Assembly: GCA_050015075.1 (NCBI GenBank)
Contig: JBEKCB010000029.1
Span: 1 to 64,000, forward strand
Origin: Candidatus Brocadiia bacterium
Lineage (GTDB): Bacteria > Planctomycetota > Brocadiia > CAIUPP01
Length of the DNA stretch: 64,000 bases
Direction of reading: 5' to 3'
The position numbers and the translations under genes are program-made. Below the pieces are notes generated by a model. It worked only from the letters and a program-made list of their open reading frames with translations. It did not search any database and had not been told where the DNA came from. Of the stretch, positions 8,094 to 54,372 are shown in pieces. Each line of letters starts with the position of its first letter. Within the stretch, counting starts at the first letter, position 1.

Positions 8094-8241
8094 ATTATAA
8101 GTCATAATCTGCGGCGCGGAGCGGGCGGGGAAAGTGAGTGCGCTTGCCAGCGGGTTCAGTGCGGTTCGGAGCGGTTTAAGTGCGCTTCAGTGCGCTTCGG
8201 AGCGGTTTGAGTGCGCTTTTTTCGGCGAGTCGGATTTGACA
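8094..8241 (+). repeat. Dispersed phased-repeat element, copy A
   Basis: ATTATAA, then 43 bp from its first base the units AGTGCGCTTGCCAGCGGGTTC / AGTGCGGTTCGGAGCGGTTTA / AGTGCGCTTC / AGTGCGCTTCGGAGCGGTTTG / AGTGCGCTTTTTT, then TTGACA. Confidence 0.85.
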
Positions 8242-8366
8242 AGGGGGTTGAGATTGTCGAATGCCGACTTGTCCGCCTTAGCCCTGGCGAAGGCGGATTG
8301 CCGAATGCCGAATGATGATGGAAAAGCGTGAAGGAAAGGAAAGCGGCAGGCTGCGGCATCCTCGGC

Positions 8367-9203
8367 CTACTCTTTTCTCCAATACCTGCCGCTCCAGTCC
8401 ACTTCCTCGAGGGCCGTCTTTATTCCGTTCTGCGATCGGAAATCATCCACGGCTTCCTTGCACCCCGACAAGGCATAGTCGTCTATGATGCAGAATCCGC
8501 CTCGGGATAATTTGCGATACAAATTGGTCAACGCATACATCGTGGAGCCATACATATCGCCGTCAAGGCGGAGAACCGCAAGTTTTTCTATGGGGGCATT
8601 GGGAAGTGTGTCCTTGAACCAGCCCTTTAGAAAGACCACCTGGTCATCCAGAAGACCATACTTCCTGAAGTTATCCTCGACCTGTTCTTTGGAAACAGCC
8701 AGGAAGGTTCGGGTATAATGCTTGTCGCCTGCATCCGCGGGAAACTTCTCCGGGTCGGGTTTGGGCAAGCCTTCAAACGAATCCGCGACAAAGACTCTGC
8801 GATTTTTAATGCCATGAGCAGCTAAAACGGCGCGCATGAAAATGCACGCTCCGCCTCGCCACACTCCGGTTTCAATGAAGTCGCCCTCGATGCCCTCGCG
8901 GATTGCGGTGTCAGCGCAGAAGTGGAGGTTGTTGAGACGCCTGAGGCCGATCATCGTATCCGCATATCCGGGCCAAAGCCGCCCTTCTTCCCTTTTCTCT
9001 GTGGCGGAAGGCAGTTGTTGAACAAGCTGAAAATGTTTTAGCCTGAGAATCCGGGAAATGAGTGAGATGGCCAATCTTTTTACGGCAGGTCGTTTGTAGT
9101 TGAACCTCTCGACTGGAATGGGCGGTTCCGGCCACAGGGCGAAGCACAGCGTCTTCTTCAGCAATTCCAGATAGAGATCTTCGGCTGTTCTTTCCACAGG
9201 CAT
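8367..9203 (-). CDS. TylF/MycF/NovP family O-methyltransferase
   Basis: TMIGLRRL, GDFIETGVWRGG, VADSFEGLP, GWFKDTLP, LRLDGDMYGST, IIDDY motifs; visibly lower GC than flanks. Confidence 0.93.
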   Translation of the reverse strand: MPVERTAEDLYLELLKKTLCFALWPEPPIPVERFNYKRPAVKRLAISLISRILRLKHFQLVQQLPSATEKREEGRLWPGYADTMIGLRRLNNLHFCADTAIREGIEGDFIETGVWRGGACIFMRAVLAAHGIKNRRVFVADSFEGLPKPDPEKFPADAGDKHYTRTFLAVSKEQVEDNFRKYGLLDDQVVFLKGWFKDTLPNAPIEKLAVLRLDGDMYGSTMYALTNLYRKLSRGGFCIIDDYALSGCKEAVDDFRSQNGIKTALEEVDWSGRYWRKE

Positions 9204-9325
9204 CCTTTTCTGGAGCGTGCGCCGCCTTCACGCTACGGCCGGTCCGCAGAGGCCATATTCTCACGATTCCAGCAGCCCCGTCAAGCGCTTTTTCGCCGGC
9301 CTGCCGGCCTTGAGTGGAGCTTCAA

Positions 9326-9408
9326 GGCGCGGAAGGGGCGGGGAAAGTGAGTGCGCTTGCCGGCGGGTCCGGCGCCGTCCGGAGCGGTCCGAGTGCGCTT
9401 CGCAGCGG
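9326..9408 (+). repeat. Dispersed phased-repeat element, degenerate truncated copy B
   Basis: GGCGCGGA..GGCGGGGAAAGTGAGTGCGCTTGCC.GCGGGT matches copy A; later AGTGCGCTTCGCAGCGG. Confidence 0.7.
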
Positions 9409-9418
9409 AACGCGTCGG

Positions 9419-11152
9419 TCACTGATATTGGTAGTAATACCAGTCGTACTCGAACGTCACGCTCTTTCCGGCCGGCACGGTCGTGTCCCACGTAATGGCG
9501 GAAATCGGGTTGGCCTGGAACGCCCACCACGGCCAGGAGTCCCCGGCGTATTCTTCGCCGCCGAACGGCGTATCCTCGTAAAGGTTTGTGGCGCTGATCT
9601 TCCCTTCATTGCTCGCCCCGGTCACGGCGCCGAGGACCTTGCGGACGGCGATCAGGCGCACCGGCTTGTCCTTGAAGCTGGCGATGGTCAGCTTTCCGCG
9701 CATCGAGACCTTGGTGTAGTCGTGGTCGCCCAGGGTGAGGCTCTTCGGCTCGCGCTTGACCTCGGTCTCCTCGCGCTTGGGATTCAGGTCGGTCGCGACG
9801 GTGACCTCCAGGTCGGCGCTGTTCTTCACGGAGGTGTAGGTGAGGATCTGTTGCGCGAGCGGGTCGCCGGACTTGAAGACCGTGGCGGGCCCGGTGGTCC
9901 ACGGGGCGTCGCCGTTGTTGGTCAGTCGCAGGACGTGCATCACCTTGGCGGCCGAGAGCGCGGCGGCGAGCTGGCGGACCTGCATGGCGCGCGGCGGGAC
10001 GGGCGGCGCCTCGTACTTGTATATGTCCTCATAAGGGACGGTGACTTCGAGGAGCTTGACGACGGCGCGCTCGCCCTTCTTGAGCGTGACGCCCGCCTGG
10101 TGATAGAGGTAAAGGTCTTCGTTCTGGCCCTCCACCGGCATGATCGGGGCGGCCTCGGCCGCAGCGGCGCGGTCGGGCTGCGCTGCGACCTGGCTCATGA
10201 CGAGGTTGCCGGTAGGATCGTTGATGAATTGCCCGCCGCGGCGCGCGGCCGGCGGGGCAAAATAGGAACTGAGTCTCGGCGCGACTTCCCGCAGCGCCAG
10301 CGGCGAGAGCTTGTCCTTCATGATGAAGCTCGGCACGCCGACGACGAGGCGCACGTTCACGTTGTCGAGGTCGGCGATCTCGTTGATGATCGTGCCCTGG
10401 AGCGTCACGCGCGCCTGGCCGCCGTCGAGGAGATCCACGCGGTAATCCGGGATCCACCGGATTCCCTTCTGAAGGTAAACGACGCCCACTTCGCCTTCCG
10501 CGCCGGCCGGCTTGCCCTGGGCGCCGGCGACGTGCAGCGAGATCTCGCGCGCGACGCGGGTTTGCGCCGAGACCGTGCGCAGGTCATCCACGGTGAGGCT
10601 GACGACGTTCTCGCGCTTGATGATCCGGACGGACTTGTCCTCCCTGAGCATGACGAAGGAGGCGAGCGTTGCAGATTCGGCCTCCGCGCTTTCCTCCGGC
10701 GGGACGAAGGCGCGGTCGTCGCCATGGTCCTTCGACTCTTTCTCCGGGGTGCCGAGCAGGGTGCCGGCGTACGTGGCCGGAGGCGCGCCGGGCAACTGCT
10801 CCACGATGCTGACCTGCTTGCCGGTGTTGGCCTGGATGAGTTCATCCATCGTCAGGCAAGGGCGGTCTTCTTTCAACTCCACGGGGCCGGCGCGGACGAA
10901 GTCCACCGAGCTGTCCTTGTCCGCCGCGAATGCCCAGAACGCGCCGAGCACCGGCGCGGGAACATCGCGCGTGCGGCACCAGCCGTCCTCGAGCTTCGCC
11001 TTCGCGCGCGCCATGATCAGCGCGTGGCCGTCCTTGAACACCGTCACGTCCGTCACCTGCAGCTTGAAATCCGGCGCCTGCGCTTGAACCACGGCGCCGA
11101 GCGCAAGCGCCGCGAACGCTGCGATTGCCCGTCGCGTTCCCTTGCCTCGCAT
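9419..11152 (-). CDS. Secreted DUF4139/DUF4140-like protein
   Basis: Signal peptide; VTVFKDG, YLQKGIRWIPDY, LTNNGDAPWTTGP motifs. Confidence 0.7.
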   Translation of the reverse strand: MRGKGTRRAIAAFAALALGAVVQAQAPDFKLQVTDVTVFKDGHALIMARAKAKLEDGWCRTRDVPAPVLGAFWAFAADKDSSVDFVRAGPVELKEDRPCLTMDELIQANTGKQVSIVEQLPGAPPATYAGTLLGTPEKESKDHGDDRAFVPPEESAEAESATLASFVMLREDKSVRIIKRENVVSLTVDDLRTVSAQTRVAREISLHVAGAQGKPAGAEGEVGVVYLQKGIRWIPDYRVDLLDGGQARVTLQGTIINEIADLDNVNVRLVVGVPSFIMKDKLSPLALREVAPRLSSYFAPPAARRGGQFINDPTGNLVMSQVAAQPDRAAAAEAAPIMPVEGQNEDLYLYHQAGVTLKKGERAVVKLLEVTVPYEDIYKYEAPPVPPRAMQVRQLAAALSAAKVMHVLRLTNNGDAPWTTGPATVFKSGDPLAQQILTYTSVKNSADLEVTVATDLNPKREETEVKREPKSLTLGDHDYTKVSMRGKLTIASFKDKPVRLIAVRKVLGAVTGASNEGKISATNLYEDTPFGGEEYAGDSWPWWAFQANPISAITWDTTVPAGKSVTFEYDWYYYQYQ

Positions 11153-11483
11153 GGCCCTGCCTCCTCTGCTCAGTCCCGGCCGAATCGGGCCGGCGACCCC
11201 TTAAGAGCATCTTTGCCCGCCGCTGAAATATACCAGAAAACCGGATTGACTTGTAAGCATATTGTGGCCAGGCGGAACGCCAGGGTTTGCTGGGCGGAGG
11301 AATATGAAAATTATGGGAATCAGGGGAAGGATGCGACTGATGGGGGCTGTTCCGATAGTTCAGGCGGGCGCGGGTCATGCGCTCGCGCAGGCCGCCCTGT
11401 TCGAGAGAATCTTTCTCCAGGCGGTGAAGCTGCTGGTCAGCATGTGCCCAAGCCGCCCGCGAGGTTTCCGCGGTTCCGGCATT

Positions 11484-12515
11484 CTATTGCGGCCGGCTCG
11501 AAGATGCCGCGGACGGTCGGTCTTCACTACGCCCCGTTCCCGCGCCGAAGATCTTCGCCATTTCCAGGAGAAACGCGCGGCGGGCGGCATCATAGCCGCG
11601 GTCGTTCGGGTCCTCGAAGACGGGACTGAACCAGTAGTGCGGATCGTCCGCGCGGTAGGTGGAACGCCAGAACTGCGCGCAGGTGATGCCGTGGCCCATG
11701 AACAGCGCGTGCAGGTCCACGAGATGGACGTTGCGGTGCCGCGCGGCTACGCGGGCGATGACGGCGTTGTACTCGGCGAGCACTTTCAGGCCGTCCGGCC
11801 ACGAAGGCAGCAGGACGACGTGCGCGGTGCCGGCTCCGTCGGTCGGATCGTAGATGTTCCCGAGGAAGATTTCGCAGCCGCCGGGGAACCTGGCCGTGAC
11901 GGCGGTGAGCATGTCGTCGAGGCGGCGCTCGTAGCTGGCGATCCAGGGCTGCGCCTGCGCCAGGGTGGCGCCGTACATGGCGCATTCCGCCGGCGGAGAG
12001 CGGCCGTAATCCTTGATGATGTCGTTGCCGCCGCTGGTCATCACGACGATGCCGAATCGCTCCGCCGGCTCGACGGGCAGTTTCTCCACCTGCCATTTCA
12101 TGTGCTGGAGAGAGGTCGTGCCGGACAGGGCGCGGTTGGTCTGCGCAAGGCCGGGGATTACGGCGGACAAGGATATCCCGCGCATGCCGTCGAATTCGTC
12201 GGGCGGGTTCGCGAAGAGCCGGTCGAAGTAGCCCTTGCCCGGCGAGGCGCCGTAGCCTTCCGTGATACTGTCGCCCAGTCCGAGCAGGAGCGTGGGGCGG
12301 CGCATCCAGGTTCGCTCGAAGTCGGCGCGCGGCACCGTCGGCCCGGCGGGCCCGCTGCCGACGGGACGGCGGATGTAGAAGAGGTAGAGCGAGAGCGCGC
12401 AGAGCAGGAAGACGCTCCAGAACGCAATCCGCAGGCGCAGTCGCCGGCGTTTCTTGCGCTGGAGCGCCGGATGGGGCGGCGCGGTTGCCGGGGCGGGGAT
12501 CGCGGGCGTCTCCAT
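11484..12515 (-). CDS. SGNH/GDSL hydrolase with N-terminal membrane anchor
   Basis: LGDSITEG, SGGND, NIYDP motifs; DPN in place of the usual DxxH. Confidence 0.8.
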   Translation of the reverse strand: METPAIPAPATAPPHPALQRKKRRRLRLRIAFWSVFLLCALSLYLFYIRRPVGSGPAGPTVPRADFERTWMRRPTLLLGLGDSITEGYGASPGKGYFDRLFANPPDEFDGMRGISLSAVIPGLAQTNRALSGTTSLQHMKWQVEKLPVEPAERFGIVVMTSGGNDIIKDYGRSPPAECAMYGATLAQAQPWIASYERRLDDMLTAVTARFPGGCEIFLGNIYDPTDGAGTAHVVLLPSWPDGLKVLAEYNAVIARVAARHRNVHLVDLHALFMGHGITCAQFWRSTYRADDPHYWFSPVFEDPNDRGYDAARRAFLLEMAKIFGAGTGRSEDRPSAASSSRPQ

Positions 12516-12691
12516 GGGCTCGACCTCATTTCGAACGGACCGCAATGTCGGGAGGCCGCAGACGATGATTATGCATAGAAAGGTGGCGGGCGGCAAGGTG
12601 AGCGGAGTTTGATGCCTTGCTGCGCGCTCCGTTCGCCTTGTCCGTCCGCCACTGACTGTTCGATGCGACATTCACTGCACGGTGCTTCGGT

Positions 12692-13696
12692 CTACCGGCC
12701 GTGTCCACCTCCTCCGTGACCACCGAACCCGCCTCCTCCGAAGCCGCCGCTATGAGAGAAGCCGCTGCTATGAGAGAAGCCGCCGCCGCTGAACCTCGTT
12801 CCTCCGCTGTAGGAGGATCGAGTTCCTGAACTCCTGTAAGTCGGAGCCGATGTGTTGGAGTACGACGCCGTTGAATCACTGCGGAAGGTCGGCGAGGAGA
12901 AAGTGCGTCCCGATGTCATGTGGCTCTCTCCGGCCGTCCCATCGAATTGCCGGGCCGACTCGCCATCCGAATGCGATACGCCGCTCTTCCAGATGGCGCC
13001 GGAGCCGCGACCATCGAATCGGCCGTCGAATCGGTCATGGTGCCTGTCAAAGCCAAAGCTCTGCCCGAAGCCCGCACACCCAATGAACCCGAACCCGAAA
13101 TCGGGGCACCAGGAGTATGGATAATCACCTGTATAGCAGTAAGGCTCCGTCGGATAGTACGACGGCCAGTAATAGGGGGCCTCCGCACCGTATTCGTAGG
13201 GCGGAAGGTCCATAAGCGTCGCAGGTTGAGAGTAAATATCCGAAAGTGTAGTGGAGCCCTGGCTGGCCTCGTCGTACGAGTTTGAGACTTCCGGAGGAGT
13301 CCAATTCGGAGCCTCGGCGTAGAGCGCGTCGATGCTGACCACTTTGGCGAGGTCCACGTTAACCGGCCCCACTTCAGTGGTGGTTTGCAGGAAGCTGCTT
13401 TCGGGTTTGTACTGCACCCGCAGAGCGACGGACTTCGTGCGGATCTCCGCCCATCCGCCGGTCGAGTCGAAATCGGCCGAGACGAAGTCTGTGGATGGCA
13501 GGGTCAACTGCCCGTACTGGGTGGTAATATTCAAGGTGAAAGACAGCGCGCCCTTCAGAGTGCTTCCGTCCGAAAGCAGAATCTTGAACCCCTGGACGCC
13601 GGGCTGAGTTGCCGGCGCCGCTGCGCTTAGCGCTGCCGTCAGCGGAAAGATGAGCAGCGCTGCTACGATTGGTAAGATCAATTTATTGTATCGCAT
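12692..13696 (-). CDS. Secreted hypothetical protein with Tyr/Pro-rich middle and Gly/Ser-rich tail
   Basis: Signal peptide, RBS GGGAGG; C-terminal GGFSHSSGFSHSGGFGGGG. Confidence 0.65.
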   Translation of the reverse strand: MRYNKLILPIVAALLIFPLTAALSAAAPATQPGVQGFKILLSDGSTLKGALSFTLNITTQYGQLTLPSTDFVSADFDSTGGWAEIRTKSVALRVQYKPESSFLQTTTEVGPVNVDLAKVVSIDALYAEAPNWTPPEVSNSYDEASQGSTTLSDIYSQPATLMDLPPYEYGAEAPYYWPSYYPTEPYCYTGDYPYSWCPDFGFGFIGCAGFGQSFGFDRHHDRFDGRFDGRGSGAIWKSGVSHSDGESARQFDGTAGESHMTSGRTFSSPTFRSDSTASYSNTSAPTYRSSGTRSSYSGGTRFSGGGFSHSSGFSHSGGFGGGGFGGHGGGGHGR

Positions 13697-13876
13697 GGTT
13701 TAACCCTCCCATGCTGCACGCGTCCATCAATGCTTGCCTTCTATATAATTATACCACGCTAAGAGGAGGAACGCGCCCAATTCCGCCGCCGGCGTAATGG
13801 CCTAAGTGCTTGTAACTGAGCGCGATATGCCATGTGGGCCCTCTCGCCCGCGCGGTCGCGCCGGTCCCTCAACTCC

Positions 13877-13905
13877 TTGACAAATCGGGCATGAGCAATC
13901 ACAAT
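13877..13905 (+). promoter_or_regulatory. sigma70-like promoter of the gcv operon
   Basis: TTGACA-17 bp-CACAAT. Confidence 0.55.
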
Positions 13906-13955
13906 GGGTGTTGAGCGGGCAACCTTCATTCGCAAGGTTCACGATGGAGACCGAA

Positions 13956-14357
13956 ATGGCGGAGCCAACGGCCGTGCCGGAAGATCGCCGCTACACCAAG
14001 GACCACGAATGGGTGCGCTTTGAGGGCGATCTCGCGGTGGTCGGCATCACCGATCACGCCCAACACGCGCTGGGGGAAATCACGTACGTGGAACTGCCGC
14101 CGATGGACAAGGCTCTCAAGCAGTTCGCCGAAGCGGGCGCGGTGGAATCCGCCAAGGCGGCTTCCGACATGTTCTCGCCGCTTTCCGGCGTCGTGGCCGA
14201 GGTCAACCTGGCGCTGGAGACCGAACCGGAGAAGGTCAACGCCGATCCATACGGAGAAGGCTGGATGTACAAGCTCAAAGGCGCGTCGGCCGGGGAGTTG
14301 GCCAACCTCCTCACGGCCCAGCAATACCGGAAGCTGATCGAGGAATCGCCGCAATGA
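13956..14357 (+). CDS. gcvH: Glycine cleavage system H protein
   Basis: YTKDHEWV, VGITDHAQHALG, lipoyl-lysine motif VESAKAAS, NADPYGEGW. Confidence 0.96.
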   Translation: MAEPTAVPEDRRYTKDHEWVRFEGDLAVVGITDHAQHALGEITYVELPPMDKALKQFAEAGAVESAKAASDMFSPLSGVVAEVNLALETEPEKVNADPYGEGWMYKLKGASAGELANLLTAQQYRKLIEESPQ

Positions 14358-15682
14358 GCTTTGTGCCGAATACCGACGCGCAGCGCGCCGAGATGCTCGC
14401 CGCGCTCGGGAAATCCATGGACGACCTCTTCAGCGGCATTCCGCCGGAACTCCGCGCGCGGTCGTTCGATCTCCCGCCGGGCCGGTCGGAATTGGAGGTC
14501 CGGCAAGTGCTGGGAAAGCTCGCCGCGAAAAACCACTATCAGCTCGTCTCCTTTCTCGGCGGCGGGTTCTACGATCACTTCATCCCGGCCGCGGTGGACA
14601 GCATCCTCAGTCGCGGCGAGTTCTTCAGCGCCTACACGCCGTACCAGCCGGAAGCCTCGCAAGGCACGCTCCAGGCCATCTACGAATTCCAGACGGCCGT
14701 GAGCCGCCTGACCGGGATGGAGGTGGCGAACGCGTCGCTCTACGACGGCGGCACGGCGCTGTACGAGGCGACGATGATGGCCCTGCGCGTGACCGGACGA
14801 CGGAAGATCATCCTCGACGAGGCCGTCAACCCGATCTACCGCAAAATGCTCCGCTCGTACACCACGAACCTGGAGATTGAGTTCCGCGAGTTCCCCAGCC
14901 GCGACGGCCGCAGCGACCGCGGGCGGATCGCGGAGCAGCTCGACGATAAGACCGCCGGCGTCATCGTGCAGAACCCGACCTTCTTCGGCTGCGTGGACGA
15001 TTACTCCGACATCGCGCAGATGGCGCATAAGGCCGGGGCGCTGCTGATCGTCTCGTGCTATCCGCTCTCGCTCGGCATCCTCAAGACGCCCGGCGAAATG
15101 GACGCCGACATCGCCACCGCCGAGGGTCAGAGCCTGGGGCTTCCGCTCTCGTTCGGCGGGCCGTATCTAGGGCTGCTGGCCACGCGGCGCCGCTTCGTGC
15201 GCAAGATGCCCGGTCGCCTGGTCGGGCGCACGGTGGACAAGAAGGGCCGGCCGGGCTTCGTGCTGACGCTCCAGGCGCGCGAGCAGCACGTGCGCCGGGC
15301 CAAGGCCACCAGCAACATCTGCACGAACGAATCGCTCTGCGCGCTGGGCGCGCTCGTCTACCTAACGCTCCTTGGCAAAGACGGCCTCACCGAGGCGGCG
15401 CAACTGTGCGCGGCCAAGGCCGCTTACGCGCGCCAGCGGCTCCTCGCGATCCCCGGCGTCACAGCGCGGTTCGCCGCGCCGGTCTTCAACGAATTCGTCG
15501 TGGACCTTCCGCTGCCGGCGGTGCACGTGATCAGCGACCTGATCGAGCACGGCTTCGCCGCAGGATTCCCGCTCAGCCGCTACTACCGCGGCATGGACAA
15601 CGCCATGCTGATCGCCGTGACTGAGAACCGCACGCGTGAGGAGATCGGCATGCTCGCCGAGACGCTGGAGGGGCTGCTGTGA
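14354..15682 (+). CDS. gcvPA: Glycine dehydrogenase subunit 1
   Basis: AYTPYQPEASQGTLQAIYEFQ, ANASLYDGG, REQHVRRAKATSNICTN. Confidence 0.96.
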   Translation: MSFVPNTDAQRAEMLAALGKSMDDLFSGIPPELRARSFDLPPGRSELEVRQVLGKLAAKNHYQLVSFLGGGFYDHFIPAAVDSILSRGEFFSAYTPYQPEASQGTLQAIYEFQTAVSRLTGMEVANASLYDGGTALYEATMMALRVTGRRKIILDEAVNPIYRKMLRSYTTNLEIEFREFPSRDGRSDRGRIAEQLDDKTAGVIVQNPTFFGCVDDYSDIAQMAHKAGALLIVSCYPLSLGILKTPGEMDADIATAEGQSLGLPLSFGGPYLGLLATRRRFVRKMPGRLVGRTVDKKGRPGFVLTLQAREQHVRRAKATSNICTNESLCALGALVYLTLLGKDGLTEAAQLCAAKAAYARQRLLAIPGVTARFAAPVFNEFVVDLPLPAVHVISDLIEHGFAAGFPLSRYYRGMDNAMLIAVTENRTREEIGMLAETLEGLL

Positions 15683-17124: not shown

Positions 17125-17450
17125 AACTGGCGGTCCACCACGGCGACAATTTTCTTGCCACGGATTTCACGGATTTCCACGGATTACCGGCGACGGCCGG
17201 AAACTGACTTGGAAAGAGCCGTTCGTTCCTTTCCACTGATCCGCCGTCGGGGCGTGTTTACCTAACACGCGGTGTCATATTATCTTATGATGCGCTGGGT
17301 TCGTTTTTCAAACTGCCTTTTGCGCCTGTGCCGCTGTCCTCTGGAAGAAGGAATCCTCTTTGACAGCTTGAAACAAGTCGCCGCCGTCCTTTGCGACTTT
17401 GCGCCTTTGCGTGAGACTCGTTGTGCCGTGCCGTTTTCAAAGTGGCGTCT

Positions 17451-17598
17451 ATTATAACACGGAATTTCGGCACGGAGCGGACGCGGGAAAGTCAGTGCGC
17501 TTGGCAGCGGGTTCAGTGCGGTCGGGAGCGGTTTGAGTGCGCTTCGGTGCGCTTCGCAGCGGTTTGGGTGCGCTTTTTTCTGCGACCTGGACTTGATG
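17451..17598 (+). repeat. Dispersed phased-repeat element, copy C
   Basis: Same layout and spacing as copy A (ATTATAA to first unit 43 bp; to TTGA 142 bp). Confidence 0.85.
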
Positions 17599-46295: not shown

Positions 46296-46323
46296 CAGCG
46301 GTTCCCTGCGCCGCCCGGCGCTC

Positions 46324-48972
46324 TCAAATCCAGGTCTTCCGGATCAGCCAGACCTTGATGAGCTGAGTCAGTACAATATAGAACAAAAGGGTCAGGATCA
46401 ACAGCGGCCAGTAAAGCGGCGGCAGCGCCTCGAGCTTGAGGTACGACGCGACCGGCGAGAACGGCAGGTACACGCCGATGGCCATGACGACCGCGGAGCT
46501 GAGGATGAGCGGCCAGCTTGCGCGGCTCTGGATGAAGGGAATCTTGTTCGTGCGGATGACGTGGATGATAAGCGTTTGCGTCAGCAACGACTCCACGAAC
46601 CAGCCGGTCTGGAACAGGGAAACGTGCGCCAGGTCCCGGCATTTGAACAAGTAGAACATCATGGCATAGGTGGTGTAATCGAAGATGGAACTGATCGGGC
46701 CGATGAAGATGATGAAGCGGCTGATCTCGCCCATTGTCCAGGGGCGCGGCTTGGCGATCTGCTCCGGGTCCACGTCATCCGTCGGGATCGCAACCTGGGA
46801 AAAATCGTAGAGGACGTTGTTGGTCAGGATTTGAAGCGAGGTCATCGGAAGCCACTGGAACAGGATGCTGGCGCCGAGGACGCTGAACATGTTGCCGAAG
46901 TTGGAACTGGCGCCCATGCGGACGTACTTGATGATGTTGGCGAACACCTTGCGGCCTTCCAGCACGCCTTCCTCAAGAACCAGGAGGCTTTTTTCGAGGA
47001 GGATCACGTCGGCGGATTCCTTGGCGATGTCCACGGCCGTATCCACGGAAATGCCCACGTCGGCGGCGCGCAGCCCGGGCGCGTCGTTGATGCCGTCGCC
47101 GAGGAACCCGACGACGTGCTTGCGGCTCTGGAGCGCCTTGATCACGCGCTGCTTGTGGGCCGGCGAAAGCCGCGCGAAGACGGTCGTCTTTTCCGCCGCC
47201 TCGCCCAGTTGCTCGTCGGTCATCGTCTCGACCTGGCCGCCCAGGAGCATCACGTCGGTCGGCAGACCCACCTCGTGGCAGACCTTGCAGGTCACCAGTT
47301 CGTTGTCGCCGGTGAGCACCTTCACGGCGATGCCGTGCTTCTGCAGCGCGACCAGCGCCGGGCCGGCGCTCTCCTTGGGCGGGTCCAGGAAAACCATGTA
47401 CCCTTTGAGGACCAGGTCCTTCTCGTCTTCCCTGGAATAGGCGTTCTTCTGCTCCAGGTCCTTGTAGGCCACCGCCAGCACGCGGAAACCGTCCTCGCAC
47501 AGCGCGTTGTGTTCCTCGCGCATGTCGTCAACGAAGATTTTCTCCATCGGGTAGAACTTGCCGGCGTATTCGAACTGCGAACAGCGCCGGAAGATTTCCT
47601 CGGACGCGCCCTTGGTGATCAGCCGAAAGCGGCCGTCCGGCGTCTTGACGACCACCGACATCATTTTGCGCTGGAAATCGAAGGGGATCTCGTCCGCCTT
47701 TTCGTAACCGGTAATCGTCACTTCCTTCGGGTCCGCCTCGTGAGCCAGGATGGCCCGGTCCAATACGTTTTTCAGCCCGGTCTGGAAATAGCTGTTCAGA
47801 TACGCCATGGCCATGACCTCGTCATTCTCCTTGCGGAACACATCGAAGTGTTTCTCGAGAATGACGTGGTCCATGGTGAGCGTGCCGGTCTTGTCGGTGC
47901 AGAGGATGTCCATCGCGCCGAAGTTCTGGATCGAGGGCAGGCGCTTGACGATCACCTTCTTCCGCGACATCACGATGGCGCCCTTGGAGAGACAGACCGT
48001 CACGATCATGGGCAGCATTTCGGGTGTCAGTCCCACGGCCACCGACAGCGCGAAAAAGAAGGCGCTCTTCCAGTCGTGCTTGGTCAACCCGTTGATCAGG
48101 AACACCAGCGGGACCATGACCATCATGAAGCGGAGCATCAGCCACGTGAACCGGCTGATGCCTTTGTCGAAGCTGGTCTGGACCTGTTGCGTCACAATGG
48201 CGCTGGCCATGCTGCCCATGTACGTCCGGGCGCCGGTCGCCACGACGAGCGCCACGGCGGTCCCGCTTTCGACGGTCGTGCCCAGGAAGCAGACGTTGGC
48301 CAAGTCCACCGGCGAAGAACTGGCGCCGCCGTTCTGCAGCGTGCTGAATTTCTCGGAGGGCATGGACTCGCCGGTGAGGAAGCTCTGGAGCAGGAACAGG
48401 TCCTTGCAACTGATCAGGCGGATGTCGGCGGGGATCATGTCGCCGGCGGCGAGTTTGATGACGTCTCCGGGAACGAGCTGGCCCAGCGGCAGCTCGCTCG
48501 CCTGGCCGTCGCGGATGACCGTGGCGGTGACCTTGATCATCGCCTTGAGCTTGGCGGCGGCCGAGTCGGCGCGCACCTCCTGGGTGAACCGCAGCGTGAC
48601 GGCCAGGACGAGCAGCGCCAGCATCACGTAGGCGCCGGCGCGGTCCGAAGGTTCGTCCGCCGTGAGATAAGTCACCGTGGCGAGGACCAGCAGGAGGATC
48701 ACCAGCGGATTGATGACGGCCTTGCCCAGGATGGCAAGCTGGGTGTGCTGCTTTTCCTGCCCCAGAGTGTTCGGCCCGTACTGCTCGAACCGGCGCTGCG
48801 CCTCGGCCTGCGTGAGCCCTTGCGGCGAACTCTGCACCTTTTGAAAGAGTTCCTCCGGGCTGAGCTTCGCCGCCTCCAGGAGTTCCGGCGAGACCTGGAT
48901 CTTCTGGAACGACTTTTTCTCCATGAACCGCAGCAGGACCTTCGGCAGCACCGACGTTGGCAAGATGCTCAT
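46324..48972 (-). CDS. mgtA: Magnesium-translocating P-type ATPase
   Basis: TGES, AVGLTPEMLPMI, DKTGTLT, GDGINDAP, ASSNFGNMFS, FQTGWFVES. Confidence 0.95.
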   Translation of the reverse strand: MSILPTSVLPKVLLRFMEKKSFQKIQVSPELLEAAKLSPEELFQKVQSSPQGLTQAEAQRRFEQYGPNTLGQEKQHTQLAILGKAVINPLVILLLVLATVTYLTADEPSDRAGAYVMLALLVLAVTLRFTQEVRADSAAAKLKAMIKVTATVIRDGQASELPLGQLVPGDVIKLAAGDMIPADIRLISCKDLFLLQSFLTGESMPSEKFSTLQNGGASSSPVDLANVCFLGTTVESGTAVALVVATGARTYMGSMASAIVTQQVQTSFDKGISRFTWLMLRFMMVMVPLVFLINGLTKHDWKSAFFFALSVAVGLTPEMLPMIVTVCLSKGAIVMSRKKVIVKRLPSIQNFGAMDILCTDKTGTLTMDHVILEKHFDVFRKENDEVMAMAYLNSYFQTGLKNVLDRAILAHEADPKEVTITGYEKADEIPFDFQRKMMSVVVKTPDGRFRLITKGASEEIFRRCSQFEYAGKFYPMEKIFVDDMREEHNALCEDGFRVLAVAYKDLEQKNAYSREDEKDLVLKGYMVFLDPPKESAGPALVALQKHGIAVKVLTGDNELVTCKVCHEVGLPTDVMLLGGQVETMTDEQLGEAAEKTTVFARLSPAHKQRVIKALQSRKHVVGFLGDGINDAPGLRAADVGISVDTAVDIAKESADVILLEKSLLVLEEGVLEGRKVFANIIKYVRMGASSNFGNMFSVLGASILFQWLPMTSLQILTNNVLYDFSQVAIPTDDVDPEQIAKPRPWTMGEISRFIIFIGPISSIFDYTTYAMMFYLFKCRDLAHVSLFQTGWFVESLLTQTLIIHVIRTNKIPFIQSRASWPLILSSAVVMAIGVYLPFSPVASYLKLEALPPLYWPLLILTLLFYIVLTQLIKVWLIRKTWI

Positions 48973-49175
48973 GCGGCGCCTCCGGCTATGTTCCGACCGT
49001 CAATCGGTTTCAAGTGCGCAAAAGTACCATATCTGCATTCGGGAGAACAAGGTTCAGACCAAACTTTTCTGCACCGGAAGACCGAATGCGTCCGATTGAC
49101 TTTCCGCGGGGCCTGTGATAGAAAGCCCTTTCCGGCTGGCAGTTTCCAAGTTCCCTCATTTGGAAGGAGAGACGG

Positions 49176-50012
49176 ATGAAGAAGGCCATTTGCCATTACA
49201 GCTTCCATCGCCGCTGGACGGCGGAAAAGTGGACGGCGGAGCGGCTGGCGGAGGAAGTGAAGGCGCTGGGGATCGAGTGCGTGGACTTTCACGCCGGCAT
49301 GATGGCGCCCGCGGCGACCGCGGTGGAGCGGATCCGGGCGGCGCTCTCCAAGACCGGGCTGACCCTCTCCAGCCTTTCTCTGGGGAACGATTTCAACAAG
49401 GAAAACCCGAAGGAATTCAAGGCGCAGGTGGATGGCGTCAAAGAGTGGATCCGTGTGGCGGCCGAGCTGCGCGCGCCGGTCTCCAGGATTTTCGGCGGGT
49501 CGCTCGGCGAAAAGGAGCGCGGCGATCCCGCCGCGAAGGCGAAGGGCCGGCAGCGCATCCTCGACGGCCTCGGCGCGGTGGTGAAGGAAGCCGAGAAGAA
49601 CGGACTCGTCCTCGCCATCGAGAACCATGGCGGCCTGCCGTGCACGGGCGAAGAGCAGGTGGATGTGATCCGCGCGGTCAACTCTCCGAGCCTCAAGGCG
49701 ACGATTGACGTCGGCAACTATCTCGAGGGCAACCAGGAAGCGGAAGTCGGCACGCGCGTCGCCGCGTCGCAAGCCGGTTACGTTCATTTCAAGGACGTCA
49801 AGAAGATCCCTGACGCCGCCGCGCGGTTCGGCCGGAAACTCGAGGCCTGCGCACTGGGCGAGGGCGGCGTGAATCTGCGCGCCTGCCTCGACGCCTTGAA
49901 GAAAGCCGGCTTCGACGGCGTCGTCGCGCTGGAGTACGAAGGCACCGAGGCTGAAACGACCGGTGTGCCGAAGAGCGTGGCGCACATGAAGAAGGTCATG
50001 AAGGGCTACTGA
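49176..50012 (+). CDS. Sugar phosphate isomerase/epimerase (xylose-isomerase-like TIM barrel)
   Basis: LAIENHGG, DVGN, VHFKD, LEYEG. Confidence 0.85.
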   Translation: MKKAICHYSFHRRWTAEKWTAERLAEEVKALGIECVDFHAGMMAPAATAVERIRAALSKTGLTLSSLSLGNDFNKENPKEFKAQVDGVKEWIRVAAELRAPVSRIFGGSLGEKERGDPAAKAKGRQRILDGLGAVVKEAEKNGLVLAIENHGGLPCTGEEQVDVIRAVNSPSLKATIDVGNYLEGNQEAEVGTRVAASQAGYVHFKDVKKIPDAAARFGRKLEACALGEGGVNLRACLDALKKAGFDGVVALEYEGTEAETTGVPKSVAHMKKVMKGY

Positions 50013-50229
50013 AAAACGTGAATCGCTGACGCGCGGCGCGGGACCGAAGGAGCCGGTCCCGCTGCCGCGCAGCTAATCCCGATCGCACCGAGCGGCAGGG
50101 CGGCGGGCTTCACGCAGGCCGCTCATGGCAGCCGCGGCGCGCCGCCGAAGTCGGGACAGGCGGACTTTAATCGCCAATCATCCCCGGACTTTCATGGCAG
50201 GCGATCAAAAAATCTTTTGCATTTTTCCC

Positions 50230-50257
50230 TTGACAGGGCCGTCCTGTTTGTTAGAAT
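50230..50257 (+). promoter_or_regulatory. Near-consensus sigma70 promoter with no sense-strand gene downstream
   Basis: TTGACA-16 bp-TAGAAT with extended TGn and an AT-rich upstream tract. Confidence 0.5.
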
Positions 50258-50310
50258 GCAACGATAAGCATTTGTTGTAAATGCGAGCGCCGACCTTAAT
50301 ACGCGCTGAT

Positions 50311-50358
50311 CAAAAAACACGCAAGGAAGGTCGGGAAGGGGCGCCCGACCTTCTGCGT
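50311..50358 (-). terminator. Rho-independent terminator downstream of degP
   Basis: Stem GAAGGTCGGG/CCCGACCTTC extended by ACGCA/TGCGT; T-tract on the minus strand (CAAAAAAC on plus). Confidence 0.6.
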
Positions 50359-50373
50359 TATCGCGGCTTGCTC

Positions 50374-50422
50374 GTAGTGTGCCCGTCAGGGCATACGGCG
50401 TAGCGCCTGACGGCGTCACTTC
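50374..50422 (+). repeat. GTAG-type REP palindrome, copy 2
   Basis: GTAGTGTGCCCGTCAGGGCATAC...CGCCTGACGGCGTCACTTC; matches 7443-7491 inverted. Confidence 0.65.
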
Positions 50423-50436
50423 AACCGCCACGCTTC

Positions 50437-51903
50437 CTACTTGTTCGCGAGCACCAGATAGGCTGCGGCTTTGCCGTTCCGGATGCGCAACGGGACCATC
50501 GGCAATGAGCGGGCGGCCTCGACGGCCGCGTTGTATTCCGCCACGTTATGGACTTCCTTGCGGGCGATTTCTTCGATGAGGATGCCGGGCTTGATGCCCG
50601 CCCGTTCCGCCGCCGAGCCTGCGGCAACCCCTGCAACCAGCACGCCCTGGTTCATTTTGTATCCCAACTGTGCGGCGATCTCGGGCGTAAGGTCCTGAAC
50701 GGTGATCCCCAGGAAAGCGGCGGCGGGCGTGGGTTCCTCGCCCTCGCCGCCCAGAGCGACCGCAGTCCGCTCGCCCAGCACCACCTCGACCGTCTGCGCT
50801 TTGCCGTCGCGGACGATTTCGATGGAGACCTTGTCTCCGGGCGTCATGGCCGCGACCGCCTCCAGCACCTCCTCGCGGGCTTTTACGGCGTGCCCGGCGA
50901 CCCGGGTGATGATATCTCCGTTTTTCAAGCCCGCTTTTCCGGCCGGAGAATCGGGGGTGACCTGAGCGATGAGCACGCCTGTCATGCCGGCGGCGCCCAG
51001 CGATTGAGCCAGCTCGGGCGTCAGTTGCTGAATCTGGACGCCGAGGAACCCACGCGTGACTTTGCCCTTCGTCCTCAGCGCGGCGAGCACCTTCTTCGCC
51101 GTGTTGCTGGGAATGGCCATGCCGATTCCGGCGAACGCGCCGCTCGGACTCGTGATCGCATTGGTGATCCCGATGACCTCGCCGTGGATGTTCGCCAGCG
51201 GGCCGCCGCTGTTGCCAGGGTTGATGGCCGCATCAGTTTGAATCAGGTTCTCGTACGTCGCCAGGCCGATGCGCCGGCCCATGGCGCTGACGGTGCCGGT
51301 CGTCACGGTATGGTCCAGGCCGAACGGGTTCCCCACCGCGATCACCCAGTCGCCGACTTCCATCTTGCTCGAGTCGCCGAAGGTGGCGGCCTGGAGCCCG
51401 GTCGCCTCGATCTTGATCAGCGCCAGGTCCGTATCCGGGTCCGCGCCGATCAGCTTGGCATCGTACTCGGCCGGGCCGGCCACGAAGAGCTTGACCGTGA
51501 TCTTGCCCGCGCCGGAGACGACGTGATTGTTCGTCAGAATGTATCCATCCGGATCCACGACGAGGCCGGAGCCGAGCCCGTGCTCGCTGAACTTCCTGGG
51601 GATGTCCTGCCCGAAGAACCGCTTCATGAGATCGTCGCCGAACGGGTTGCCCGGCGTTTGGGCGAACGGCTGCATCGTGACCTCGCGGGTGGTCTCGACG
51701 TGCGCGACGGTCGGCTCGAGCATCTCGCCGACGCGCCGGAAGACTCGCGAGAGGCTCTCGGCGACGGCAAGGTCCTGCGGCGACGCCGGTGCGGGCGGCG
51801 GGTCGCTGCACAAGCCGGCCGACGCCAGGACACCGATCCATAACGCGCAGGCGGCCAGCCCGCCGATGCGATGCGCCTTCCGGTTCGTGTGCTCAATCAT
51901 CAT
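50437..51903 (-). CDS. degP: DegP/HtrA (Do family) serine protease with two PDZ domains
   Basis: LGSG, LTNNHVV, TDLA, QTDAAINPGNSGGPL; start uncertain. Confidence 0.92.
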   Translation of the reverse strand: MMIEHTNRKAHRIGGLAACALWIGVLASAGLCSDPPPAPASPQDLAVAESLSRVFRRVGEMLEPTVAHVETTREVTMQPFAQTPGNPFGDDLMKRFFGQDIPRKFSEHGLGSGLVVDPDGYILTNNHVVSGAGKITVKLFVAGPAEYDAKLIGADPDTDLALIKIEATGLQAATFGDSSKMEVGDWVIAVGNPFGLDHTVTTGTVSAMGRRIGLATYENLIQTDAAINPGNSGGPLANIHGEVIGITNAITSPSGAFAGIGMAIPSNTAKKVLAALRTKGKVTRGFLGVQIQQLTPELAQSLGAAGMTGVLIAQVTPDSPAGKAGLKNGDIITRVAGHAVKAREEVLEAVAAMTPGDKVSIEIVRDGKAQTVEVVLGERTAVALGGEGEEPTPAAAFLGITVQDLTPEIAAQLGYKMNQGVLVAGVAAGSAAERAGIKPGILIEEIARKEVHNVAEYNAAVEAARSLPMVPLRIRNGKAAAYLVLANK

Positions 51904-52048
51904 GACAGCGCTCCTTCCATCGAGGATTGTCTCTGCGGCTTCAGGGGCCGGCGCCCAATGTCCGGAATCATTCCCGAAGGCCCCCATTCGAGGCTACTTC
52001 GGACGGCTGCGTTTGTCAAGGGCATTCCCGAAAAGGCGGGCCGCATGA

Positions 52049-52077
52049 TTGACATCGGTCCGCAATCCACCTAAACT
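52049..52077 (+). promoter_or_regulatory. sigma70-like promoter of glgB
   Basis: TTGACA-17 bp-TAAACT followed by RBS AGGAGG. Confidence 0.6.
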
Positions 52078-52103
52078 GAATTCTTAAGGAGGGCGCTGAT
52101 ACG

Positions 52104-54008
52104 ATGCCGCCGCAGGGAATGACGCTGCTTTCCGACTTCGACCTGCACCTGTTCAACGAGGGCCGGCACTACCGGCTCTACGAGAAACTCGGCGCGCACC
52201 CGGTGAAGGTCGCCGGCGTCAGCGGAACCTATTTCGCCGTCTGGGCGCCGAACGCGAACTACGTCGCCGTCATCGGCGACTTCAACGGCTGGAACACCGG
52301 CAGCCATCCGCTCCAGGCGCGCGCGCAATCGGGAATCTGGGAAGGCTTCATCCCCGGCGTCGGCCGCGGCGCGGTCTACAAGTTCCACATCGGTTCGCAC
52401 AACCGCGGCTATCGCGTGGACAAGGTGGACCCGTTCGGCCTCTACAGCCTGCCTCCGCCGGAGACCGGATCGGTGATCTGGGACCTGGACTACGCGTGGG
52501 CGGACGGCGACTGGATGGCGAAGCGGCCGCAGAACAACGGCCTGCACGCGCCGATGACGATCTACGAGGTCCACCTCGGCTCCTGGAAGCGCAGGCCCGA
52601 AGAGGGCCATCGGTCGCTGACCTACCTCGAACTGGCCGATGAGCTGCCGGCGTACCTCCAGAGCATGGGATTCTCGCACGCGGAATTCATGCCGATCATG
52701 GAGCATCCGTTCTACGGCTCCTGGGGCTACCAGGTCGTGGGATATTTCGCCCCGACGAGCCGCTACGGCACGCCGCAGGAGCTGATGACGCTCATTGACC
52801 GGCTCCACCAGCACGGCATCGGCGTGATCCTCGACTGGGTGCCTTCGCACTTCACCACCGACGTCCACGGGCTGGCGTACTTCGACGGCACGCACCTCTA
52901 CGAGCACGCCGACGTCCGCCAGGGGCTGCACCCGGAATGGAACAGCCTGCTCTTCAACTACGGCCGGAACGAAGTGCAGAGCTTTCTCGTCAGCAACGCG
53001 CTCTTCTGGCTGGAGAAATACCACGCCGACGGGCTGCGCGTGGACGCTGTGGCCTCGATGCTGTACCTCGACTACGCGCGGACGGAGGGCGGCTGGATCC
53101 CGAACGCGCACGGCGGCCGGGAGAACCTCGACGCCATCTCCTTCATCCGCCACCTGAACGAGGAATCCTACGCGCGGCACCCGGACGCGGAGATCATCGC
53201 GGAAGAGTCCACCGCGTGGCCGCTCGTCACGCGGCCGACCTACGTCGGCGGGCTCGGCTTCGGCCTCAAATGGGACATGGGCTGGATGCACGACACGCTC
53301 CGCTACATGTCCAAGGACCCGGTCTACCGCAAGTACCAGCACAACGACCTCACGTTCCGGCTGCTCTACGCCTTCAACGAGAACTTCGTCCTGCCGCTCT
53401 CGCACGACGAAGTGGTGCACGGGAAAGGCTCGCTTCTCGGAAAGATGTCCGGCGACGACTGGCAGAAATTCGCGAACCTCCGCGCGCTCTACGGCTACAT
53501 GTACGCGCAGCCGGGCAAGAAGCTGATCTTCATGGGCGGCGAGTTCGCCCAGTGGCGCGAGTGGCACCACGACGAGAGCCTCGACTGGCATTTGCTCCAG
53601 TACGCCCCGCACCAGGGCATGAGCAACTGGGTGCGCGACCTGAACCAGTTCTACCGGAACGAGCGCTCGATGTACGAACTCGAGTTCACGTATGACGGCT
53701 TCGAGTGGGTGGACTGCAACGACGCCGACAACAGCGTCATCAGCCTGATCCGCAAAGCGCGCACGACCAGCCGCGTCACGCTGGTCGTCATGAACTTCAC
53801 GCCGATGCCGCACTACAACTATCGAATCGGCGTGCCCTGGGGCGGAATCTGGCGCGAGGCCCTCAACAGCGACGCGAAGGACTACGGCGGAAGCGGGCTC
53901 GGCAACGCCGGCTCCGTCGAGGCCGAAGCCATCCCGCAGCACGGCCGCCCGTACTCGCTCTCCATCACACTCCCGCCGCTGGCCGCCCTCTACTTCACCG
54001 CCGGCTGA
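52104..54008 (+). CDS. glgB: 1,4-alpha-glucan branching enzyme
   Basis: FAVWAPNA, IYEVHLGSW, SWGYQ, GLRVDAVASMLY, AEESTAW, LSHDEVVHGK. Confidence 0.96.
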   Translation: MPPQGMTLLSDFDLHLFNEGRHYRLYEKLGAHPVKVAGVSGTYFAVWAPNANYVAVIGDFNGWNTGSHPLQARAQSGIWEGFIPGVGRGAVYKFHIGSHNRGYRVDKVDPFGLYSLPPPETGSVIWDLDYAWADGDWMAKRPQNNGLHAPMTIYEVHLGSWKRRPEEGHRSLTYLELADELPAYLQSMGFSHAEFMPIMEHPFYGSWGYQVVGYFAPTSRYGTPQELMTLIDRLHQHGIGVILDWVPSHFTTDVHGLAYFDGTHLYEHADVRQGLHPEWNSLLFNYGRNEVQSFLVSNALFWLEKYHADGLRVDAVASMLYLDYARTEGGWIPNAHGGRENLDAISFIRHLNEESYARHPDAEIIAEESTAWPLVTRPTYVGGLGFGLKWDMGWMHDTLRYMSKDPVYRKYQHNDLTFRLLYAFNENFVLPLSHDEVVHGKGSLLGKMSGDDWQKFANLRALYGYMYAQPGKKLIFMGGEFAQWREWHHDESLDWHLLQYAPHQGMSNWVRDLNQFYRNERSMYELEFTYDGFEWVDCNDADNSVISLIRKARTTSRVTLVVMNFTPMPHYNYRIGVPWGGIWREALNSDAKDYGGSGLGNAGSVEAEAIPQHGRPYSLSITLPPLAALYFTAG

Positions 54009-54233
54009 GCCGCCAGTATCTGTCTCATATTGCAACAGTAATACAACGCACTATCGCACAGCATGTTGCAACGCGCCGGGTTCGTTTTTTCAAATGGTCT
54101 TTACCATAACGAAAGCTCTCTCGCCAAGCCGCCAAGAACAAAATAATCAGTGTCTTTCGTTCTTTGCGCTCTTTGCGTCTTTGCGAGAGAACTTCTTTCA
54201 TTTATGAACGTCAATAGCAACTATCCAGCCGCC

Positions 54234-54372
54234 ATTATAACATGTGATTTTCGGTGCGGAGCAGTCGAGGAAAAGTGAGTGCGCTTCGCAGCGGGTTCAG
54301 TGCGCTTGGGAGCGGTATAAGTGCGCTTCGCAGCGGTTTCAGTGCGCTTTTTTCAGTGAGCCGGACTTGACA
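54234..54372 (+). repeat. Dispersed phased-repeat element, copy D
   Basis: ATTATAA...three 21-bp units AGTGCGCTTNGNAGCGGNNTN, then AGTGCGCTTTTTT...TTGACA; lacks the 10-bp half-unit. Confidence 0.85.

Follow-up and report, generated by a model that had tools for sequence, protein, structure and literature searches.

Helically phased direct repeats and a promoter-like box form a dispersed intergenic element in an uncultured planctomycete lineage

Dispersed intergenic repeats of bacteria are, to our knowledge, usually palindromic, and their functionality is hard to show. The BOX element of Streptococcus pneumoniae is a dispersed intergenic repeat made of a left box, a variable set of ~45-bp internal units and a right box, with a predicted RNA fold. 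Bacterial interspersed mosaic elements and repetitive extragenic palindromes (BIME/REP) of enterobacteria, and the neisserial intergenic mosaic elements (NIME) and Correia elements of Neisseria, have palindromes or terminal inverted repeats as their defining feature; Correia elements also have a TA target duplication and outward promoter boxes. Tandem direct repeats every 10–11 bp, bound cooperatively, make up the ParR-parC iterons of plasmid R1 and the operators to which winged-helix or HTH (helix-turn-helix) regulators bind, such as the OmpR sites of ompF/ompC and the PhoB boxes. Late promoters of phage Mu carry a −10 box and no usable −35, with protein C binding one dyad that overlaps the −35. 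Here we describe a non-palindromic 147-bp element built around phased direct repeats, present as three full copies (A, C and D) and one decayed copy (B) in a 64,000-nucleotide stretch of a Candidatus Brocadiia bacterium (contig JBEKCB010000029.1 of assembly GCA_050015075.1). This stretch, the window, belongs to a draft genome (G000) of 4.64 Mb and 64.7% GC in 66 contigs, where it is contig C29.

Architecture, copies and distribution

On the plus strand the element opens with ATTATAA, which reads TATAAT on the minus strand. A variable spacer of 36–38 bp follows, then about eight GCG(C/G)TT cores every 10–11 bp, a run of six T (T6), a 13-bp stretch and TTGACA. The distance from ATTATAA/TATAAT to the array is fixed at 43–45 bp, the intervening spacer differing by ±1 bp between copies. 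Two kinds of unit compose the array: the a unit is AGTGCGCTT extended either by a single base (10 bp in total) or by a spacer of three variable bases (12 bp), the b unit reads AGYGGKTTn, and in canonical copies they follow one another as a b a b a a b a. The unit by which copies differ in length is the 10-bp AGTGCGCTTC.

All four copies in the window lie on the plus strand and, by our own open reading frame (ORF) calls based on third-position GC (GC3), are intergenic. Copy A (8094–8241) measures 147 bp from ATTATA to TTGAC (nhmmer E 1.9e-46), with ATTATAA at 8094–8100, the variable spacer at 8101–8135, the a/b array at 8136–8216, T6 at 8217–8222 and TTGACA at 8236–8241. Copy C (17451–17598), likewise 147 bp, ends in TTGAT and belongs to the ATTATAACA subfamily (TGTTATAAT on the minus strand). 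Copy D (54234–54372), at 138 bp, is full but for exactly one 10-bp AGTGCGCTTC unit, and sits between a glgB-like gene (52104–54008, plus strand) and a convergent POR-like gene (54542–55111, minus strand). Copy B (9326–9408) retains part of the spacer and the first units, has neither end box and shows numerous T>C changes; it matches only positions 21–117 of a 13-copy nhmmer profile (E 1.2e-10). The original prediction had placed four copies at these coordinates, with A and C alike in spacing and D one half-unit short. Its description of the window is accurate, and its count grows to 13 full and 3 partial copies, found by blastn and an nhmmer profile, once the whole genome is considered.

The repeats are phased on the DNA helix. 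The a-b unit GTGCGCTTNNNAGYGGNTT, with one mismatch allowed, occurs eight times in the window against 0.03 expected, and none of 100 shuffles reached eight. Tandem Repeats Finder (TRF) reports periods of 21, 10 and 31 in the element, and self-identity across 34 canonical copies peaks at lags of 10 (0.50), 21 (0.69), 31 (0.67) and 42 (0.55), with all other lags at 0.12–0.39. Against 20,000 random 95-bp windows of the genome, the 10.5-bp periodicity of A/T versus G/C in the array ranks in the top 0.31% for all 13 full copies. Because sites spaced 10–11 bp apart fall on one helical face, the lag, TRF and periodicity tests bear out the predicted dispersed element with direct repeats on one face; with at least three direct repeats at whole helical turns, the array has the form of an iteron or operator. 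It is also, as predicted, neither a CRISPR (clustered regularly interspaced short palindromic repeats) array, since its units abut or have three variable bases between them and there are no unique spacers of similar length, nor bounded by terminal inverted repeats: copy A has no such pair, D has a local palindrome only, and the single 12-nt pair flanking the array of C was discarded as it is not conserved in the orthologue of C.

Full copies occur in discrete lengths of 137 bp (one copy), 138 bp (two), 146 bp (three), 147 bp (34), 148 bp (five), 157 bp (three) and 167 bp (two), a tally that leaves out three rows whose regular-expression match began at an upstream ATTAT; two more 137/138-bp copies and one shorter copy (L069) stand outside it. 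Differences of ±1 bp are located in the spacer. Steps of 10 and 20 bp mostly reflect the gain or loss of entire AGTGCGCTTC units at the a-a tandem, and one 157-bp copy (L071) has duplicated a different 10-bp piece. The one-turn deletion in copy D had been taken as a sign of selection for helical phase. That argument finds no support here, because slippage between tandem 10-bp units yields multiples of 10 only, with or without selection, so that quantised length is not evidence of phase selection. Spacing is conserved in so far as lengths cluster at 137/138, 146–148, 157 and 167 bp, but slippage explains these steps and the spacer itself varies by ±1 bp. The phasing of the array, by comparison, is a structural fact.

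The element is narrowly distributed. BLAST over 61 genomes, the window's own and 60 relatives, recovered it only in the window's genome and in a sister species of the same genus (G001), with 13 matches each. A looser pattern allowing two mismatches gave 40 and 43 matches in these two genomes and a single match in the other 59 relatives, the level of reversed-pattern controls. Among these genomes, additional copies are therefore confined to the window's genome and the sister species. A scan of one genome per species found the pattern in one metagenome-assembled genome only, and a metagenome scan yielded 59 loci; metagenome runs that contain the window's DNA are labelled peat or wetland. All sources pooled give about 50 distinct full copies, which include orthologues, so counts over them are not independent. 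Within the genome, 49 of 64 occurrences of AGTGCGCTT lie inside elements, and GTGCGCTT occurs 196 times outside them, within the range of permuted controls (32–369). As the core motif is not enriched outside elements, we dropped the idea that single sites form a wider regulon. Two further clusters of GTGCGCTT, at C25:6509 and C4:54004, proved to be unrelated tandem repeats. A viral contig carries one exact a-b-a unit in AT-rich DNA beside a TATAAT box (L056 1500–1540, identical to L100), a match unlikely by chance; the element profile fails to recognise the site and we regard it as unrelated. A thin literature search, judged by titles and the starts of abstracts, returned no paper about the element, which is no proof that it is undescribed.

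The element resembles several described systems in part. Like BOX, it combines modular boxes with a variable number of units, is lineage-specific, numbers tens of copies at most, and may affect the genes beside it. Unlike BOX, its units are helical direct repeats of 10 and 21 bp, its minus strand has no stem-loop, it shows no covariation, and it has no sequence similarity to BOX. The modular build and variable unit number of BOX- and BIME-type repeats are thus both present, but palindromic or stem-loop units are not; palindromes lie in the neighbouring hairpins. It shares with BIME, NIME and Correia elements an intergenic mosaic of a few modules in fixed order (a repeat unit that we call X, hairpins, the element and right-hand modules), yet has no palindromes, terminal inverted repeats or target duplication, its constrained part being the phased direct-repeat array. 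As in OmpR, PhoB and ParR arrays, sites share one face and are grouped two by two, each ~20-bp pair combining unequal half-sites, and the −10 box downstream of them has a poor −35 or none. It differs from these in being a dispersed, conserved 147-bp cassette at unrelated genes, with its nearest site at about −53, an array reaching to −130 and a regulator that is a candidate only.

Constraint on the cores and turnover of the flanks

Nine copies occupy the same loci in both species, with flanks about 90% identical. Most of these positional orthologues are reciprocal best matches; D is not, and L is only weakly so. Orthologue identity is 0.85–0.99 (93.9% for copy C) against a mean of 0.83 over all copy pairs, so concerted evolution is absent. 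We then compared the orthologues column by column, classing each column as conserved or variable only from copies less than 90% identical to the tested pair. Differences fell at 8 of 692 sites in conserved columns and at 99 of 617 in variable columns, a 14-fold contrast (Fisher p 2e-25, a value that overstates independence, as the nine pairs share one speciation event). A simpler, partly circular version of the test gave 4 of 693 and 103 of 616.

So low a divergence of core columns indicates that the cores, ATTATAA, T6 and TTGAC are each under purifying selection at many loci independently. On these comparisons the repeat cores are under position-specific purifying selection: in a non-palindromic element, cores stay unchanged at nine orthologous loci while the bases between them diverge by 16%. 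Both the information profile and the orthologue differences show constrained cores and free spacers, as in iterons and operators. Because the invariance of the cores is base-specific, it argues for a sequence-specific reader rather than for bendability alone. Selection on the cores is compatible with the binding protein that had been predicted, and the contrast of core and spacer reads as a clean signature of such a reader in a poorly known, uncultured planctomycete lineage.

The two flanks evolve differently. The left 100 bp align between species in all nine orthologous pairs, whereas the 100 bp to the right of TTGACA align clearly in four, marginally in two and not at all in three, other repeat modules having been inserted or swapped there between the species. 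At copies F, L and K synteny breaks off at the right end or no more than ~35 bp from it, and copies A, G, J and K have low-GC DNA on their right. Two copies present in the sister species only sit in inserts of ~330 bp (X plus element) and ~700 bp. Both inserts are larger than the element, and neither of these two filled-versus-empty comparisons revealed a target-site duplication. With no terminal inverted repeats and no target-site duplication, the element does not look like the end of an insertion sequence or of a miniature inverted-repeat transposable element (MITE), in line with the earlier claim. The segment at 7144–8335, bearing copy A and the HTH gene beside it, is missing between the same flanking genes in G001.

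A separate observation concerns strand polarity. At nine of 13 copies, or eight of nine without two prophage copies and two copies of near-zero skew, the element's plus strand coincides with the strand richer in G over the surrounding ±30 kb. Copies on a shared contig all have the same orientation. The skew is a weak hint of polarity relative to replication.

Promoter-like boxes, small-terminase-like genes and candidate functions

The minus-strand TATAAT is exact in 40 of 42 aligned copies, a −10 hexamer found exactly upstream of only 13 of 281 ordinary genes, and it carries a TG extension (TGnTATAAT) in 24 of 50 copies. The outward-facing promoter boxes of the original prediction thus survive in half. 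TATAAT is near-invariant, but TTGACA was rejected as a working −35, with no −10 partner 16–18 bp away in A, C or D, and no complete promoter is formed. A junction promoter made by joining the two ends was also rejected, the boxes being on opposite strands. In several copies, the actual promoters of right-hand genes lie 20–40 bp beyond TTGACA.

Tabulation of the neighbours, as the original prediction had proposed, showed them to be functionally unrelated. Scans of 44 flanking proteins recognised, among others, the glycine cleavage system, a branching enzyme, alanyl-tRNA synthetase (AlaRS), an H+-PPase, LpxB, LepA, a PIN toxin-antitoxin pair and a TylF methyltransferase. In the ATTATAAG subfamily, 16 of 26 copies (orthologues included) lie 13–156 bp upstream of a leftward gene. 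In the ATTATAACA subfamily, 15 of 24 (again with orthologues) lie behind a co-oriented gene, X and a hairpin.

One association stands out. A 163-aa HTH protein of a DUF1804/small-terminase-like family is encoded at 7501–7992 on the minus strand, starting about 100 bp left of copy A, which makes it a candidate ligand of the element or a candidate regulated gene. It is one of three small-terminase-like paralogues in the genome, with C25:21120–21563 and C3:225616–226104, and is 40% identical (E 2e-41) to the DUF1804 gene product on C25. Element copies lie upstream of two of the three. On C25 the order is element, a gene for a 161-aa membrane protein, the DUF1804 gene, an 84-aa ORF, the large terminase gene (TerL), a further copy of the element, and then the portal, protease, head and tail genes. 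The two elements share the direction of the operon; one precedes its first gene, the other the portal gene. The arrangement of element and terminase cluster recurs in metagenome relatives whose DUF1804 protein is only 42–68% identical. The element in this way connects a conserved Mu-like head/tail cluster with host intergenic DNA.

The C25 cluster (C25:9400–22080, loci L108 and L110) also encodes an adaptor, and the gene for its major head protein is divided between two ORFs. Genes for replication, lysogeny or lysis are absent next to it. Of 25 genomes from another family of the class, 15 have a single-copy homologue of its portal, 41–44% identical; the cluster may be a domesticated, gene-transfer-agent-like element. 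The third paralogue (C3:225440–226104) has no element and a canonical TTGACA-17-TGTTATAAT promoter, indicating that the host uses these boxes; it lies between two copies of a different hairpin repeat, with an ORF6N-like DNA-binding gene after it.

The family assignment of the HTH protein comes from its relatives and from gene position. Among 39 aligned homologues, 26 match DUF1804, 10 Terminase_5 and nine the phage terminase small subunit family, and one homologue of 54% identity clears all three curated cut-offs; the window protein itself falls below all Pfam cut-offs. Its predicted structure (predicted local distance difference test score, pLDDT, 92) has an N-terminal four-helix HTH followed by long helices. 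Foldseek returned nothing at E ≤ 0.001, with small terminases only at template modelling (TM) scores of 0.24–0.28. A fold search (VIA) recovered only a generic N-terminal HTH of LuxR/GerE-like and GcrA type at Z ~7, and a sequence-profile search of the PDB gave weak HTH matches only. The modelled fold is thus an HTH of common type, and fold searches show no more. A predicted homo-oligomer of four copies scored 0.33 against a mark of 0.42. Single-protein queries found no relatives in viral contigs, nor in a phage collection by tblastn. As first candidate for the binding protein, a role the original prediction had given it, this protein gains comparative support from the C25 paralogue, the two co-oriented copies and the arrangement kept in relatives, but the link is one of association.

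We rank first, while giving it somewhat less than an even chance, a portable, factor-dependent promoter or operator. An oligomeric HTH protein would bind the roughly eight one-face cores cooperatively, the best candidate being the DUF1804/small-terminase-like family with its three paralogues, one of them beside copy A. The array and the minus-strand TATAAT, which has no −35, would form a cassette from which transcription leaves leftwards through the ATTATAA end, and unit number would shift by slippage at the a-a tandem. This reading draws on the invariant TATAAT, on its TG extension in half of the copies, on the fixed 43–45 bp to the array, and on the terminase and Mu-cluster copies pointing along their genes. 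The likeness to Mu late promoters lies in −10 boxes without a usable −35 before the lysis/terminase and head genes of a Mu-type late region; here, however, a distal direct-repeat array takes the place of the C dyad, and no Mor/C-like gene was seen in the cluster. If correct, this reading would define a portable, factor-dependent promoter cassette. The HTH proteins and the array are in any case a concrete candidate protein-DNA pair.

Several observations weigh against a leftward promoter. A consensus scan of A, C and D found no −35 hexamer at 16–18 bp from TATAAT, the −35 position falling in the variable spacer, and no complete sigma-70 promoter on either strand that uses either end box. Five of 13 copies (C, D, F, J and K) have no leftward gene, and D and K are conserved although they lie between convergent genes. 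From copies of the TGnTATAAT subfamily, 15 of 24 of which follow a co-oriented gene, a leftward transcript would enter a long hairpin. Eleven of 13 copies are away from any terminase-like gene, and the terminase clusters of another family lack the element, which is therefore not needed for that cluster. The interval from element to left gene holds no other promoter in seven of eight cases, but this carries little weight, since a promoter was seen at only 84 of 281 control genes (30%). T6 and TTGACA, conserved as strongly as the cores, are left unexplained. To these come the non-independence of the pooled copies and gene calls made with our GC3 heuristic, which is not a gene finder.

Two rivals would make the element an RNA gene or a functionless repeat. 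A plus-strand small RNA gene, with repeated AGUGCGCUU motifs ending at a U-tract and perhaps titrating an RNA-binding protein, would suit the T6 run after the last unit and the RNAalifold consensus of 42 copies, which reaches −21 kcal/mol with 20 pairs on the plus strand against −6 kcal/mol on the minus strand. Compensatory changes, however, are absent from all 20 plus-strand and all seven minus-strand pairs. All 48 one-sided changes in the plus-strand pairs keep a G-U or standard pair (nine cells are broken), but these count for little, as C/T and A/G transitions give G-U pairs free on a G/U-rich strand. The consensus scan found neither a plus-strand promoter nor a terminator-like hairpin at T6. 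A terminator would not need the conserved sequence beyond T6, TTGACA included, and gain or loss of units would remodel the fold. Rfam gave no match at gathering threshold over the window and none at E ≤ 5 around copy C; around copy D only sub-threshold microRNA-like matches appeared, on the flanking hairpins. The element occurs in both orientations across tandem, divergent and convergent intergenic regions (over 13 copies the left gene reads away at eight and toward at five, as does the right gene), which argues against a cis-acting RNA. Contigs from one RNA run (7% of sampled words) cover no copy and are hence silent on the copies' expression. We regard an RNA gene as the least probable of all the readings; that the element works as DNA, as an array read by a protein, is well supported by these comparisons. 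The second rival, a selfish, MITE-like or mosaic intergenic repeat without host function that spread with X and the long hairpins, would account for its presence and absence between species (the ~330-bp and ~700-bp inserts and a 1.2-kb segment with copy A), for its fixed, co-oriented company (X left of seven of 13 copies, type-2 hairpins at six to seven and type-1 at four), and for its insertion between TerL and portal genes that abut in relatives. Set against this, there are no terminal inverted repeats, no target duplication at two insertions and no linked transposase, nine of 13 copies are stable positional orthologues, and a 14-fold lower divergence of core columns is unexpected for junk. 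Gene conversion would homogenise the variable columns too, and these stay divergent. A functionless repeat is accordingly improbable, if less so than an RNA gene.

The other alternatives keep a protein on the DNA and change what it does there. The array could be a landing or wrapping site, akin to a packaging (pac) site, for a ring of the small-terminase-like HTH protein, serving packaging recognition, with the chromosomal copies as extra sites. According to PMC4737164, neighbouring HTH motifs in ring-shaped small terminases are separated by roughly one B-DNA turn, and a bendable stretch of ~100 bp would be ideal for wrapping; the geometry here agrees with that model, with seven to ten cores, one per turn, over ~85–105 bp. 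The pac regions of SPP1 and SF6 described there likewise have ~100 bp of direct repeats with periodic A/T-G/C beside a small-terminase gene, and an HTH one-turn wrapping model; but the isolated domain in that account binds without sequence specificity, whereas our element has invariant cores and 13 copies and is missing from other-family clusters. Homologues of the HTH protein fall in DUF1804, Terminase_5 and small-subunit families, and the DUF1804 gene of the C25 cluster lies just upstream of TerL, much as the DUF1804 gene adjoins the terminase gene in phage SuMu. Copies precede both the p161-DUF1804-TerL operon and the solo paralogue, two flank the terminase genes and are kept in diverged clusters, and independence from neighbouring genes fits copies D and K. 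Yet the element is not a conserved part of the packaging module across relatives: among 12 loci fetched from another family, TerL and portal leave no room for it in 11 of the 11 with both genes. Two copies per cluster and 11 elsewhere contrast with pac sites that are usually single, the invariant TATAAT would have no role, particle production by the cluster is putative only, and the window protein falls below Pfam cut-offs, with only a generic HTH from the fold searches. We consider such a packaging site unlikely; if true, it would be the first case known to us of defined chromosomal recognition sites for such a cluster. A DNA-level site with no promoter role, where a nucleoid or topology protein binds or wraps or where neighbouring DNA is exchanged at a recombination hot spot or anchor, seems to us just as unlikely. 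Its indifference to orientation and neighbouring genes, strong A/T-G/C periodicity, asymmetric flank turnover with synteny breaks at F, L and K, low-GC DNA right of A, G, J and K, and the G-rich-strand match at nine of 13 copies all suit that idea. The base-specific invariance of the cores favours a sequence-specific reader instead, the right-flank breaks do not fall at one exact nucleotide, the skew association is weak (two of the 13 copies have near-zero skew, one of them counted among the nine), and no recombinase gene is linked to the copies among the flanking proteins scanned. A bolder combination, in which the copies are chromosomal landing pads for the terminase-like protein of a domesticated Mu-like, gene-transfer-agent-like cluster, its HTH ring wrapping eight phased sites and packaging or exchange starting at ~13 loci, would explain the fast turnover right of TTGACA between sister species; we give it a slim chance, below that of a functionless repeat.

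Companion repeats and neighbouring features

Repeats that accompany the element, namely X, the hairpins and the right-hand modules, keep a constant order and orientation relative to it. X occurs 44 times in the genome, and where it stands left of an element it is invariably co-oriented with it. Its core, TGGRTTCGTTTTTTCAAATCGCC, is preceded by TGTTRCGACAAAT, and the left gene reads away from X in 29 of the 44 copies. X has no match in Rfam, and neither a promoter nor a terminator role could be upheld, with no convincing consensus on either strand. In the window, a module X with core TGGGTTCGTTTTT.CAAA lies left of copy C (17282–17330, plus strand), co-oriented with the element. Left of copy D, the plus-strand modules at 54078–54193 comprise an X unit (54078–54110) and a long type-2 hairpin (54114–54193) whose two arms are at 54117 and 54175.

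Two families of long hairpins, types 1 and 2, stand 25–60 bp left of ATTATAA, and a small set of alternative modules stands right of TTGACA. Hairpin sites in the window are 54114–54193, 54399–54479, 55877–56001 and 58404–58473, and many other contigs carry them. Their arms are made of short tandem words, TCTCTCGCCAAGACGC in type 2 (27 arms) and AACCGCCGATGGACGC in type 1 (55 arms), and covary between copies. The heptads CGCACTC and GATTGCC, likewise in tandem, are each found at over 30 loci. CGCACTC is often immediately left of ATTATAA, and its reverse complement is GAGTGCG, the core of the element.

Left of copies E, G and H lie paralogous genes of ~200–300 aa (C1:43806–44711, C27:1–465 and C43:25216–26058), 59–62% identical to one another. 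None has a Pfam or PHROG match, and each is behind a type-1 hairpin. Two reach the end of their contig, which suggests that the gene itself is repeated; E, G and H resemble duplicated versions of a single gene-hairpin-element block.

Between copies A and B, the gene for a TylF-type O-methyltransferase (8367–9203, minus strand) has a third-position GC of 0.62 against ~0.88 in its neighbours. It is 87% identical in the sister species and has an exact match to a 168-nt contig of an RNA library. The segment that bears copy A and the HTH gene also contains, at 7165–7431, a palindromic repeat of ~250 bp to which the sister genome has over 30 matches.

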